Program-made: the position numbers and the translations under genes | Shown: positions 4,674 through 9,716 of the stretch, piece by piece | Numbering within the stretch: the first letter of the stretch is position 1 | How the letters are laid out: each line of letters opens with the position of its first letter | The notes under the pieces: model-generated | The model's database searches: none | What the model was told of the DNA's origin: nothing | What the model saw: only the letters and a program-made list of their open reading frames with translations | From: a virus | Taxonomy: Duplodnaviria > Heunggongvirae > Uroviricota > Caudoviricetes | DNA length: 9,716 nucleotides | Strand: one strand, 5' to 3' | IMG/VR virus record: IMGVR_UViG_3300029504_000019

Positions 4674-5981
4674 TTAAATCCGAAGTGATGTGACTCTTCC
4701 GGTCGGTTTGACAATAGGGAATTGCTTAACGATGAAATAACCTCCGGCATCATTCGGGTGATCATTGCCAGATTTTTTATCAGGCTCCCCCTTCTCATCC
4801 CAGACCTGTTGCTCCAGAGATTCGGCATATAACGGGCAACGCTTCACATTAACTTTATAGCGACGCTCACCATTGGCATTGCAGAACATTGCATTCATTG
4901 AGTTAACGCGATCTTTTACTGGCGGGTTCGAGCTGTTCACCACAACGTTAAAACCAGCCTGCTTAAGCTGGGCTATATCCGTCGTACTTGCGTTACTTGA
5001 TTTTCTGGAATCCCCGGAAGCATCTGGATAAATATAAATTTCCCTCACTTTCCGGTAATCATTCCCATCATACAGCCAGAAGCGTTCTTTAATGATGCGG
5101 ATCATATCCGGCGTATCGTAGGCATTGATGATTTCAGTTACCGCACATGGAAGCCCCAAACGCAGCACATGGACGATTCCCGCCATCTTTCCAACGTTAA
5201 AATCCATCCCAATATAAATCGGCTCCCCTGGCTGCTCCACTTCTTCGCAATTATTCAGTTTCCGGTCAAACTGATGGTAAACAGTACCACTTGTCAGGTT
5301 AGTAAACTGTCCTCGAAGATAGGCTTTAATCAGCTCTGGAGGGTATGATTCAAGAAGCGAAGGAATGTAATCTGCTGGCAGGTTCTTTTCATTATCGAAA
5401 GTAGATGCCTGCACCAGACCATACAGTGAGGCCAGCTCTGTTTTTTCACGCACGGCTTTAACAAACTGCTCGTAGACAAATTTGAATCCCTCCGGCGTGG
5501 TTGTAACGTCAATACCGTTGCGAAGTCCATCAATCTTATAACGCATACGTGCAATTATCTTGCGCCACGCCGTTCTGGCTTTTTCCTTCGGCAAAATGTC
5601 CAGTTCATCCACCAACGCATTACCAATTTTGAAACCGACGATCGTTTGTGGCTTCTCCATCGATCTGCAGATAGTGGTTCCCCGATACTGGCGTCCGTAA
5701 TAAAAGTGAACCTCTTTATTTCCCTCATTAATTTTTACGTTCAATCCCCAGTCAGCAGCAACTTCTTCCACTGTAAGGTAAAAAATATCGCGAATTTGGG
5801 GATACGTTGGCGCAAAATATCCCTGATTTATACCTGGATGCTCCCAAATCCCCTTGCATATGCCGCCACAACCAACCCATGTTTTGCCCGAGCCAAAACC
5901 AGCAATATAGGCTTTAAATTTATGGGGCATTGAAAGAAATCGCGCCTGAGGCACATTAAGCGTCGGAGAGATCATCTTCAT
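4674..5981 (-). CDS. Terminase large subunit (ATPase plus RNase H-like nuclease)
   Basis: Walker A motif (YIAGFGSGKTW) near the N-terminus, Walker B-like (NALVDELDI), and a C-terminal nuclease domain with acidic motifs (IYIGMDFN, YIYPDASGD, GNDHPNDAGGYF). The track start at 5984 is GTG; ATG codons follow at 5981 and 5975, and AAGGAG sits 8 nt upstream of the 5975 ATG, so the true start may be 5975. Confidence 0.9.
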   Translation of the reverse strand: MKMISPTLNVPQARFLSMPHKFKAYIAGFGSGKTWVGCGGICKGIWEHPGINQGYFAPTYPQIRDIFYLTVEEVAADWGLNVKINEGNKEVHFYYGRQYRGTTICRSMEKPQTIVGFKIGNALVDELDILPKEKARTAWRKIIARMRYKIDGLRNGIDVTTTPEGFKFVYEQFVKAVREKTELASLYGLVQASTFDNEKNLPADYIPSLLESYPPELIKAYLRGQFTNLTSGTVYHQFDRKLNNCEEVEQPGEPIYIGMDFNVGKMAGIVHVLRLGLPCAVTEIINAYDTPDMIRIIKERFWLYDGNDYRKVREIYIYPDASGDSRKSSNASTTDIAQLKQAGFNVVVNSSNPPVKDRVNSMNAMFCNANGERRYKVNVKRCPLYAESLEQQVWDEKGEPDKKSGNDHPNDAGGYFIVKQFPIVKPTGRVTSLRI

Positions 5982-6684
5982 CACTCCTTACTCTGGCATC
6001 AACCACATTAATATTGATCGCCACAGGCTGGGGATGTTCATTATCTTCCACCGTTTCGATCTCTTTGCGCAGCTTCTGGTTTTCCATTCTGCGCCGTTCA
6101 ATTTCCAGTTCCTGTAGCCGTTTATCTGCACATAAAGCCCCGCCAGCAGAAAACAAACGCAACAATTCACGCCGGGCGGCAGCCTTATCCTCCAGCAGGA
6201 TCTCAACGCCGAATTTTCCGAATTTTGCCCCTGCATATAATTGCCGCGCATCCCCATCAAGCAGAGTGGTATCAGCCATATAAAGCTGTCCCGTTCCCTC
6301 ACCGCAGCACTTCGGGCAGTCCGGATTGGGTATGGCGTTATCAACAAAGCCGAGGCCTCCATATTCCGGTTCGGGTTTGCCATCTCTGGAAGCCTGCGCC
6401 GCTGCCTTGTCGAATTCTGCTATATCGCGCCACTGGTAGAGATGATTCTCGCCCCAGCAATAACGGCAGTTAACACGGCGAAATTGTGCAAGCTGATTGG
6501 GGTCGGCCAGGACAATAGCCATCAACTGACTCACTAGTAAATCCAGGTCTGCGGTATAGCGTTTCTGGTACTGATTGCGGAAGTAGCTGATAGCGCGAAA
6601 AACCCTGGCATTTCTAAGCATACGACTGGCGTTGCTGTTAGCTGTCGCACCTTGCCCCTCATAACCGGCTACCGGGCAAAACAT
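5956..6684 (-). CDS. Candidate terminase small subunit / DNA-packaging protein with a Cys4 zinc-ribbon-like motif, coiled-coil segment and acidic tail
   Basis: A 242-aa ORF directly upstream of TerL, overlapping it by about 25 nt. It contains CRYCWGENH (Cys 73/76) and CPKCCGEG (Cys 123/126/127), a charged heptad-like segment (QELEIERRRMENQKLRKEIE) and an acidic C-terminus (SDEDDLSDA). The call rests on position and architecture, not on recognised homology. Confidence 0.5.
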   Translation of the reverse strand: MFCPVAGYEGQGATANSNASRMLRNARVFRAISYFRNQYQKRYTADLDLLVSQLMAIVLADPNQLAQFRRVNCRYCWGENHLYQWRDIAEFDKAAAQASRDGKPEPEYGGLGFVDNAIPNPDCPKCCGEGTGQLYMADTTLLDGDARQLYAGAKFGKFGVEILLEDKAAARRELLRLFSAGGALCADKRLQELEIERRRMENQKLRKEIETVEDNEHPQPVAININVVDARVRSDEDDLSDA

Positions 6685-7226: not shown

Positions 7227-8684
7227 TTAGGAGCGCCAAAAAAAACCTGAAAACAATATAATAACAGGATAAATTTCAAGGCGACCAAGAATCATAGCTA
7301 TGCACATTAAACATTTTGCAATGTCATTAAGCACTCCGAATGACGATGCAGTAGCCCCAAAACCTAATCCCATATTATTAATACATGCAGCCACTGTTGC
7401 AAATGATGTAAGAAAATCATATCCCATACCATTTAACACCAGTATAAAAAACACCGTGAAGAGAGTATAAAGAAAAAAGAAACTCCATACAGACCTCATT
7501 ACACGATCTGTAACTATCTTCCCTCCTACATTTACACTCAACAACGCTCTGGGATGAGAAAGCTGATTTATCTCGTGTTTGCTTTGTTTGAAAAGTATAA
7601 GAAATCGAAGTGACTTAATTCCACCACAAGTTGAACCTATACATCCCCCAAAGAAACTTGACAACAGCAAAAACACTATCGTGTGCGTGGGCCAACTTGC
7701 ATAATCCTGCGTAGCTAAACCATTATCAGTGAGCATGGAGCTGGCAAGAAAAAACGAATGAATAAAACTTCCATGCAAGTCATACATACCTATATGCCAG
7801 ACCTGGAAAGAGGTAACAATGATCACCCCTAAGGCTATTAACAGAAAGAAACGAAGTTCAATATCTCTGATTAAAGGTTTTATCGTTTTCCTGCTAATAA
7901 CAATATACCAAAGAGTGAAGTTGAAAGCCGATAGCAGGGAAAAAGAACCAGCCACCAGCTCAACCAAATAGTTATTAAAATATCCGATACTCTCGCTATG
8001 AGTTGAGAAACCACCAAGCGAAACTGTGGAAATCCCGTGACAAATAGCATCAAACAAAGGCATTCCTGCAAGTCTATAACAGACAATACAAGCAATACCT
8101 AATAAAGAATAAGTTATCCACAGTGTCCGTGACGTATCGGCCAGGCGGGGAGTGAGTTTGTCATCCTTAAATGGCCCCGGCATTTCTGACTGATAAAGCT
8201 TTGCACCACCAATACCCAATAATGGCAATACAGCAACCGCCAGAACAATAACTCCTAAACCACCTATAAAATTTAACTGTGACCGATAGTACAAATATGC
8301 CCGAGGTAATGAACTAACATCATCAATTACAGTTGCTCCTGTTGTTGTTATTCCAGAAACCCCTTCAAACAGAGCATCAATGAACGTTAAATTAAGTTCT
8401 GAGTCAATCCATAAAGGGAATGCACTAATAACAGAAAACAAAATCCAAAACATTACAATTATAATAAACCCATCACGGGTACGTAATTGAATGCCAGATT
8501 TCTTAGTTGTATACCACGCTCCGCCACCAATGCAAAAAAATATAACGAAAGTTATAAAGAAAACGAACAGGCTTTTTTCTTTATAAAACAATGCTACAAC
8601 CATTGGTGGCAACATTGAAAGACTATAGAGCCAAACCAGGAACCCACACATATGAGTAACAACTCTTACATGAGATGTATTCAT
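7227..8684 (-). CDS. trkG: TrkG/TrkH-family potassium uptake transporter (about 485 aa from the ATG at 8684)
   Basis: Polytopic membrane protein with TrkH/KtrB selectivity-filter-like glycine motifs (GVSGITTTGATV, TVSLGGFSTH, CINNMGLGFG); the sequence from MNTSHVRVVTHMCGFLVWLYSL matches my recollection of E. coli TrkG. The track start at 8702 is a TTG six codons upstream; the ATG at 8684 is preferred. The gene is visibly AT-rich relative to its neighbours. Confidence 0.9.
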   Translation of the reverse strand: MNTSHVRVVTHMCGFLVWLYSLSMLPPMVVALFYKEKSLFVFFITFVIFFCIGGGAWYTTKKSGIQLRTRDGFIIIVMFWILFSVISAFPLWIDSELNLTFIDALFEGVSGITTTGATVIDDVSSLPRAYLYYRSQLNFIGGLGVIVLAVAVLPLLGIGGAKLYQSEMPGPFKDDKLTPRLADTSRTLWITYSLLGIACIVCYRLAGMPLFDAICHGISTVSLGGFSTHSESIGYFNNYLVELVAGSFSLLSAFNFTLWYIVISRKTIKPLIRDIELRFFLLIALGVIIVTSFQVWHIGMYDLHGSFIHSFFLASSMLTDNGLATQDYASWPTHTIVFLLLSSFFGGCIGSTCGGIKSLRFLILFKQSKHEINQLSHPRALLSVNVGGKIVTDRVMRSVWSFFFLYTLFTVFFILVLNGMGYDFLTSFATVAACINNMGLGFGATASSFGVLNDIAKCLMCIAMILGRLEIYPVIILFSGFFWRS

Positions 8685-8685
8685 A

Positions 8686-8760
8686 TCTAAATATTCTTTC
8701 AATTATAACCACCTTGCTGCAATATTATGATTATACTGTATAAAATTTAACTCCTCTTAG
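8686..8760 (-). promoter_or_regulatory. AT-rich region upstream of trkG with candidate sigma70 -10 hexamers (possible autonomous promoter)
   Basis: The 119-bp gap between the Rz stop and trkG carries two perfect TATAAT hexamers on the minus strand (8707..8702 and 8735..8730), but neither has a convincing -35 element at 16-18 bp. Speculative. Confidence 0.25.
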
Positions 8761-8821
8761 ATCTTACTTCACTGTTCCTTATGAAACAATCATCAAAATG
8801 AATCATATTGTAGTTAAGATT

Positions 8822-9286
8822 TTACTTTAAACACTGCTCGGTTATGTATTGCTGAGCACCTTCAAGTTGGGCCTGCATCATTACCAGTCGTTCCCGGAGG
8901 GTGAAATAATCCCGTTCAGCGGTGTCTGCCAGTCGGGGGGAGGCTGCATTATCCACGCCGGAGGCGGTGGTGGCTTCACGCACTGACTGACAGACTGCTT
9001 TGATGTGCAACCGACGACGACCAGCGGCAACATCATCACGCAGAACATCATTTTCAGCTTTCGCATCAGCTAACTCCTTCGTGTATTTTGCATCGAGCGC
9101 AGCAACATCACGCTGACGCATCTGCATGTCAGTAATTGCCGCGTTCGCCAGCTTCAGTTCTCTGGCATTTTTGTCGCGCTGTTCTTTGTAGGCGATGGCG
9201 TTATCACGGTAATGATTAACACCCCATGACAGGCAGACGACGATGCAGATAACCAGAGCGGAGATAATCGCGGTTACTCTGTTCAT
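8822..9286 (-). CDS. Rz: Rz i-spanin (inner-membrane spanin subunit)
   Basis: Near-identical over most of its length to lambda Rz as I recall it ([21 protein letters not shown]...[44 protein letters not shown]...[45 protein letters not shown]...). N-terminal transmembrane helix then coiled coil. The ATG at 9286..9284 overlaps the endolysin stop (TGA 9285..9283) as ATGA; the track start at 9298 is a GTG four codons upstream. Confidence 0.9.
8881..9066 (-). CDS. Rz1: Rz1 o-spanin (outer-membrane lipoprotein), fully embedded in Rz in the +1 frame
   Basis: 61-aa ORF (ATG 9066..9064) with a lipobox (LVVVGC), a Pro-rich tract ([19 protein letters not shown]), and the classic embedded-gene arrangement inside Rz. 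Confidence 0.85.
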
Positions 9287-9716
9287 TGCTGACCCCACAA
9301 ACAGATTTCACGCTCAATCTCACGACGAGTCATGAGACCTTTCCATTGCTTACCGCCAGCATATGTCCAGCGACGTAGCTGATCACATGCGCCTTTGATA
9401 TCGCCCTGGTTTATTTTGCGAAGAAGCGTCGATGTTCTGAAATTGCCAGCACCCACGTTGTAAACGAATGAGTAAAGAGCGCCGCGCGTTGTTTCCGGTA
9501 TATCGACTTTGATGTACGGGTTAATTTGTCTGGCGACCGTGGCAAGGTCTTTATTCAAGAGTGTTTTGCATTCTGCTTTGGTATACGTTTTACCGAGCAT
9601 GATGTCTTTTCCTGTATGCCCGTGACATACAGTCCATACACCAACAATATCTTTGTATGGTATGTAGCTGACACCTTCCAGACCATCGTTACCACTTGGG
9701 CCAGTGATTAACACTG
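9283..9716 (-). CDS. R: Endolysin, T4-lysozyme-type (GH24) of the P21 R / SAR-endolysin kind; 5' end (SAR signal-anchor) lies outside the window
   Basis: The translation (...[36 protein letters not shown]...CLWGQQ) matches my recollection of the P21 R21 SAR endolysin, with the Glu/Asp/Thr catalytic positions (GLEG, YKDIVG, WTVCHG) present. The frame is open to the window edge, and the first track codon is an internal GTG (Val), so the gene is truncated by the window and not biologically. Confidence 0.9.

Follow-up and report, generated by a model that had tools for sequence, protein, structure and literature searches.

How does a lysis cassette come to be intact in a prophage which can no longer build a virion? 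We have studied this question in a stretch of viral DNA of 9,716 nt (IMG/VR record IMGVR_UViG_3300029504_000019), which we call the window. Positions 8822–9716, at its end, hold most of an endolysin gene and two spanin genes: R, Rz and Rz1. The original prediction saw in their preservation either recent decay of the prophage or selection for a use which benefits the host, such as controlled autolysis. Our answer is that this region is the distal part of a lysis operon of the phage 21/DLP12 type in a Rac-type prophage, and that it is intact since the deletions in this prophage are very young. We give this reading a probability of about 0.8.

The lysis genes

The following features are found in the cassette; all of them are on the minus strand.

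9283–9716, minus: 3' 87% of the endolysin gene R (codons 23–165 and stop), a GH24 'true lysozyme'; PF00959 match
9283–9286, minus: ATGA overlap of the R stop codon TGA (9285..9283) and the Rz start codon ATG (9286..9284); read from the sequence
8822–9286, minus: Rz, i-spanin, 154 aa, complete, with a transmembrane segment at the N-terminus and a helical domain in the periplasm; PF03245, PHROG 13
9074–9079, minus: Shine-Dalgarno AAGGAG, 7 nt upstream of the Rz1 ATG; read from the sequence, with the RBS of phage 21 annotated at the equivalent position
8881–9066, minus: Rz1, o-spanin lipoprotein, 61 aa, in the +1 frame and wholly inside Rz; PF06085 (E = 2e-19), PHROG 3198
8822–8896, minus: C-termini of Rz (~24 aa) and Rz1 (5 aa, SGNDW) in their Rac-type allele; recognised by the break in the phage matches

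The endolysin frame (9714..9283, minus) is open and runs off the end of the window. Codons 23–165 of 165 lie inside it; the start codon and the 22 N-terminal residues (5' 66 nt) are found beyond position 9716. The visible part matches PF00959 at model positions 3–125 of 125 (E = 1.1e-45, Pfam). Its translation contains the complete triad E-X8-D-X5-T, with E35, D44 and T50 in full-length numbering; an E-X8-D/C-X5-T catalytic motif has been described for the SAR endolysin class (PMC9239132). The catalytic positions had been predicted to be preserved and all three can indeed be read in the window translation, which has no inactivating substitution at the catalytic Glu, Asp or Thr. The lysis genes are also free of frameshifts, as had been proposed, and of internal stops.

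The SAR segment itself is represented in the window by just its last five residues, VLITG; the Gly/Ala-rich remainder lies outside. Relatives in which the DNA agrees with the window without a single difference as far as its edge have an R with a Gly/Ala-rich N-terminal SAR segment. By extrapolation from these relatives, R of the window would be a SAR endolysin and intact. The original prediction named the genes correctly but overlooked that the start codon of R and most of this segment are outside the window. Their full-length protein has 165 aa, of which three differ from RrrD of DLP12 (PDB 4ZPU; E = 9e-111). It also matches PDB 3HDE/3HDF, which we take to be phage 21 R, with E = 3.4e-110. 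The DNA of the cassette region is 100% identical in many E. coli genomes.

Rz matches PF03245 at model positions 1–125 of 126 (E = 3.7e-53, Pfam) and PHROG 13 over 1–154 of 154; its ATG start was placed by homology to the annotated i-spanin of phage 21. The protein has a hydrophobic N-terminal segment, residues 5–21, and two cysteines, Cys99 and Cys152. Rz1 occupies 0.47–0.87 of the length of Rz. It has the lipobox VVGC with Cys20, which fits the consensus [LVI][ASTVI][GAS]C, and then Cys29 and a Pro-rich core. Spanins of the lambda type are characterised, among other features, by cysteines which form an intermolecular disulfide (lambda Rz C99/C152 and Rz1 C29; PMC6139136): all of them are matched in the window by Cys99 and Cys152 of Rz and Cys29 of Rz1. 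The earlier description of a preserved Rz transmembrane region, Rz1 lipobox and ATGA start/stop overlap (9286..9283) agrees with what we read.

The ends of the two spanins are peculiar to the Rac type. There is a mosaic breakpoint inside Rz, at window position 8896/8897: phage 21 and most phage matches stop at 8897 (query position 76). The allele found beyond this point is apparent in the last ten residues of Rz and in the end of Rz1, SGNDW, whereas in phage 21 and DLP12 Rz ends in QKYINEQCR and Rz1 in SERG. The same Rac-type allele is present in rzpR/rzoR of the K-12 Rac prophage and in the phage record vB_EcoS-683R6.

A single base, at position 9045, is shared with E. coli OW1E2 and alters both frames: it gives A81V in Rz and L8F in Rz1, in the core of the signal peptide. 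At the equivalent position phage 21, DLP12, K-12 Rac, 683R6, E62, Cn5, EC11 and PEC1013 all have A/L. This clade-specific change is probably neutral.

The prophage and its deletions

All genes of the window are found on the minus strand. After R, Rz and Rz1 come trkG, a ParB-like ynaK fragment, a remnant of the small terminase, the large terminase and the portal; they are followed by fragments of a minor head protein, a P22-type capsid protein and Lom, and by the start of a tail-fibre gene. The order Rz/Rz1, trkG, ynaK … lom, tail fibre is syntenic with the Rac prophage of E. coli K-12. Judged by its trkG, ynaK, lom and tail-fibre genes, the element is a Rac-type lambdoid prophage of E. coli. 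The features outside the cassette which we will need are:

7227–8684, minus: trkG, an AT-rich cargo gene (moron) directly downstream of the lysis cassette, a Rac-type marker; PF02386, E = 5e-145
6657–6671, no strand: deletion junction 3, 1.85 kb lost, the blocks aligned on either side overlapping by 15 bp; blastn against OW1E2
2989–2990, no strand: deletion junction 2, 2.3 kb lost, with the scaffold, the 5' part of the capsid gene and the greater part of the minor head gene; blastn against OW1E2
2783–2785, no strand: deletion junction 1, 14.9 kb missing; a C-terminal fragment of Lom is joined to the 3' end of the capsid gene; blastn against OW1E2

The composition of the window is uneven. Positions 7227–8821, which include trkG and a spacer of 119 bp to Rz, have a GC content of 0.33–0.41, compared with about 0.5 in the flanks; such a low value is typical for a cargo gene acquired between the lysis and packaging modules. 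Another peculiar region, positions 1200–2400, belongs to the 5' part of the tail-fibre gene, which is on the minus strand and is cut by the left end of the window; this region has a GC content of ~0.61 and a strongly skewed A/T ratio. It has long open frames in several phases, which suggests a repetitive coding sequence of low complexity. A scan of the window with Rfam gave no matches.

The closest relative is the prophage of E. coli OW1E2 (locus L001). By blastn the window is collinear with it, with 99.5–100% identity in each aligned part and ~99.9% overall, with the exception of three deletions. This prophage adjoins intR/xisR/ttcA; the integration site is known from OW1E2 alone, a relative of ~99.9% identity. 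The largest deletion, of 14.9 kb, takes out all the tail genes, the head–tail connectors and most of the capsid gene. The deletion of 1.85 kb has removed the 5' end of terS and two ORFs and has left a chimeric ORF of 242 aa (5956–6684), in which the C-terminal part of terS is fused to upstream sequence. The chimeric protein has matches on short Logan/ENA contigs only; all of them have at most 6.2 kb and none reaches beyond the 3' end of Rz.

Two contigs of a single metagenome run, from human gut, show 100% identity to the window at every junction they reach: L004, which spans all three, and L005. The configuration with three deletions is natural. Junction 3 is also found on Logan contigs of other samples, with an identity of 99.6–99.7%, which makes it older and more widely distributed than the other two deletions.

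The element is unable to make virions. The deletion of morphogenesis genes, on which the original prediction was based, is true only in part. Tails, connectors and scaffold are gone; most of the capsid gene and of the minor head gene has been lost too, and terS has no 5' end. The loss does not extend to TerL (436 aa) and the portal (468 aa), which are still intact in the window.

Upstream genes in relatives

In E. coli OW1E2, E62 and Cn5 the DNA identical to the window runs on upstream into a complete R with its SAR segment and into a holin of the S21 type, with 71 aa and a dual start (M1/M4). In all the sampled relatives which have no IS insertion, both essD and R are intact. A gene for a Q-like antiterminator is also found in OW1E2 (PHROG 753, E = 2e-79); the stretch from Q to S contains hairpins which resemble terminators. 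When this stretch was scanned for consensus promoters, 11 candidates came up versus 6.4 expected, all of them weak, and none could be taken with confidence as the late promoter.

Between the Q-like gene and the holin of OW1E2 (L001, positions 27614–28420) there are two lipoprotein-like cargo genes with a TolA C-terminal domain; phage 21 and 683R6 have tRNA genes there. The OW1E2 prophage is also defective: its early region is truncated by IS421 and its tape-measure gene is split by an IS5-like element.

Comparison with known lysis modules

Phage 21 (OL657228, with the S21 pinholin/antipinholin, R21, Rz21 and Rz1-21) has 98.3% DNA identity over window positions 8897–9714. Its record annotates a SAR endolysin, an i-spanin, an o-spanin, a dual-start pinholin/antipinholin and a Q-dependent late promoter. 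The gene order, the ATGA overlap, the frame of Rz1, the lipobox and Cys29 are all equal to those of the window. Over residues 23–165 there are two differences between R and R21 (A73T, and T98, which is M in R21), with E35, D44 and T50 kept. The spanins are one residue shorter in phage 21, where Rz has 153 aa and Rz1 60 aa, as compared with 154 and 61 in the window; at their C-termini, over the final ~24 residues in Rz and the final 5 in Rz1, they differ from the Rac-type allele. The gene downstream is also different: bor in phage 21, trkG in the window. Relatives of the OW1E2 type depart from phage 21 in having another type of Q (PHROG 753/DUF1133) and TolA-C-domain cargo instead of tRNAs between Q and S.

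The DLP12 module of E. coli K-12 (essD-rrrD-rzpD-rzoD) has the same operon architecture and is likewise found in a defective prophage. R has two differences from RrrD over the visible 143 residues. However DLP12 is another prophage at another chromosomal site: its R differs by 13 synonymous and 2 non-synonymous changes, and its Rz has different N- and C-terminal alleles and an annotated GTG start.

The Rac prophage of K-12, with rzpR (a pseudogene) and rzoR, is of the same type as the window. These genes lie directly upstream of trkG, with 99.8% identity over window positions 8000–9266. In K-12, however, a deletion has removed the holin, the endolysin and the start of Rz and has brought the ydaW region next to about codon 8 of Rz, while the window keeps a complete Rz and at least codons 23–165 of R.

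A Rac-type layout has also been deposited as a phage, vB_EcoS-683R6 (ON470595, a partial genome), with Q, tRNAs, S, R, Rz, trkG, ParB, terS and terL. It is the sole phage record among the matches listed which covers the full 895 nt, with 98.5% identity. Its Rz is 2 nt from that of the window and the coding sequence of trkG is identical; R differs in 10 codons (6 synonymous, 4 non-synonymous). It has a complete ParB, as well as the terS and the two small ORFs lost from the window.

The cassette is thus an ordinary, already characterised member of the phage 21/DLP12 family of lysis modules. We infer its phage-21-like working by analogy, from its near-identity to characterised proteins. If transcribed, R would be exported by Sec, and its N-terminal SAR segment would tether it, still inactive, in the inner membrane. 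The pinholin would depolarise the membrane; R would then be released and refold into an active muramidase, with the triad E35/D44/T50, and degrade the peptidoglycan. A slow spontaneous release of SAR endolysins is possible without a holin (PMC9239132). In the last step the Rz/Rz1 complex, covalently linked through C99/C152 of Rz and C29 of Rz1, would disrupt the outer membrane, as reported for the disulfide-linked complex (PMC6139136).

Losses of the cassette in sister strains

In other strains the same cassette has been lost in several ways. The deletion in the K-12 Rac prophage took S, R and the first ~7 codons of Rz. In different E. coli genomes the trkG-linked R is broken by an element of the IS3 family, at a site which corresponds to window position 9513, 9628 or 9692. 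Two of these cases, at 9513 (L012, 3015–4344) and 9692 (L013, 3194–4524), are clean IS insertions of ~1.33 kb with target duplications of 5–6 bp; essD and Rz still flank R. In the third one, at 9628 (L014, from 3130), the IS is also in R, and no homology to R or to a holin was detected beyond it within the flank that was fetched. Probes for the IS junctions found 16, 9 and 7 genomes, with overlapping counts: these cases are rare in comparison with the ~726 carriers of the cassette. A much higher proportion, half of the trkG-linked cassettes with an IS in R, which came from evenly spaced rows, is ruled out by these junction-specific counts. That R is hit repeatedly by IS elements could be due to chance, or to a cost which a SAR endolysin imposes on its carrier.

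Some trkG-linked prophages pair the same Rz with an unrelated endolysin, a glycoside hydrolase of 158 aa, and a holin of the lambda family (L015, 2784–3605). The mosaic break of these copies is found exactly at the R/Rz junction (window 9283–9286). The cassette is not generally protected in the Rac-type prophage family.

Recent decay or selection

Comparison with OW1E2 gives 7 mismatches in ~8,058 aligned bases (~0.09%) and none in the 895 nt of the cassette. At this divergence the neutral expectation is ~0.8 substitutions in 895 nt, with a probability of ~0.46 of finding none; the intact cassette therefore says nothing on selection. Among 5,426 complete E. coli genomes there is none which matches the window from end to end, or even reaches a coverage of 80%. 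A 501-nt probe across junctions 1 and 2 gave the same result, with no complete genome of the 5,426 covering at least 80% of it, and the exact 45-nt pattern of junction 1 is absent from species-representative genomes. Recent decay is the best reading, because the cassette is identical to that of OW1E2 and has been lost by the K-12 deletion and by IS insertions in sister strains. The original prediction had left the choice open between recent decay and a benefit to the host: the first part is favoured by the absence of differences in the cassette and of junctions 1 and 2 from complete genomes, the second one finds no support.

The ratio dN/dS against intact phage homologs, which had been suggested as a check, turned out to be of limited use. 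For R it is low (0.04–0.29) against phage 21, DLP12 and 683R6, but there is no difference at all from the closest relative and hence no power; the low values reflect constraint among the compared prophage and phage copies in general, not in the defective state. Among the trkG-linked alleles sampled, R has 11 synonymous and 6 non-synonymous codon differences. This synonymous excess is weakly suggestive of constraint and is confounded by mosaic recombination. The differences in Rz are few, mostly non-synonymous and clustered in phage-21-like patches; such clustering points to recombination patches rather than to point mutation.

A trkG-linked cassette of the R21 type has been retained in about 726 of the 5,426 complete genomes. 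Such a broad retention is compatible with weak constraint, or with recombinational repair or exchange. It can be counted, together with the mostly synonymous differences of R, in favour of a domesticated cassette, whose low-level or conditional expression would help the host in peptidoglycan turnover, vesicle control, autolysis or the supply of biofilm eDNA. This idea has already been published for the near-identical DLP12 module (PMC7918800): its S-R-Rz/Rz1 operon is reportedly under stress regulation and modulates the production of vesicles. Deletion of either Rac or DLP12 also roughly halves cell lysis in biofilms of K-12 (PMC4632033). However the Rac of K-12 lacks S and R, so that its effect on biofilm lysis is not due to this cassette. 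Zero substitutions in comparison with the less decayed OW1E2 leave no signal of constraint after the loss of the virion. Independent IS insertions and one deletion destroy the cassette in sister strains, and the differences in Rz look like recombination patches. For the window we consider domestication very unlikely. We are equally doubtful of a wider reading, in which the trkG-linked cassette of Rac would be kept in this E. coli lineage by selection after virion loss as a host-controlled module of autolysis or envelope remodelling, parallel to DLP12; the window would then be an early snapshot and the IS knock-outs a sign of its cost.

Exchange with other lambdoid prophages, of the same genome or of others, whose lysis modules are near-identical could also keep the cassette intact by recombination or gene conversion, with no need of either recency or selection at the level of the host. 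The cassette sequence is present in several copies in many genomes (median 2, maximum 13). Mosaic breakpoints coincide exactly with the edges of modules, at the R/Rz junction and at 8896/8897 inside Rz, and the differences between trkG-linked alleles form clustered phage-21-like patches (V16I, G22A, A32T, E35A). Nevertheless such a process is superfluous here, as the whole window, and not just the cassette, is ~99.9% identical to OW1E2. Moreover Rz/Rz1 still have their Rac-type C-terminal allele; copies of the phage 21 or DLP12 type have therefore not converted this part recently. We find this explanation highly improbable. An unlikely one, to which we nevertheless give some weight, is that a lesion a little beyond the window edge, in the 5' end of R, the holin, Q or the late promoter, has already inactivated the cassette, so that its intact appearance is an artefact of where the window ends. 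The missing 66 nt of R and everything upstream leave room for it. One of the sister IS insertions corresponds to position 9692, just 24 nt before the end of the window, and beyond another one no homology to R or a holin was detected in the fetched flank; in OW1E2 the truncation of the early region by IS421 may have led to the loss of Q expression. On the other hand, identity to relatives with intact R and holin extends to the last base of the window, the three known IS sites are uninterrupted in it, and the sampled relatives free of IS all keep both essD and R. Very young deletions in a prophage with a still intact lysis operon are thus the reading which we prefer.

Significance for the Rac family

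The genes, the mechanism and the presence of usable lysis modules in defective prophages are all established, and in this respect the cassette matters little beyond its correct annotation. What is added here is an explanation for the pattern of an intact module in a dead prophage, which is accounted for by the youth of the deletions. The window represents one natural stage in the decay of the Rac family, beside prophages of the OW1E2 type, vB_EcoS-683R6, the K-12 deletion and the copies disrupted by IS elements. Such a series could be material for measuring the relative rates at which the different modules of a prophage are lost.
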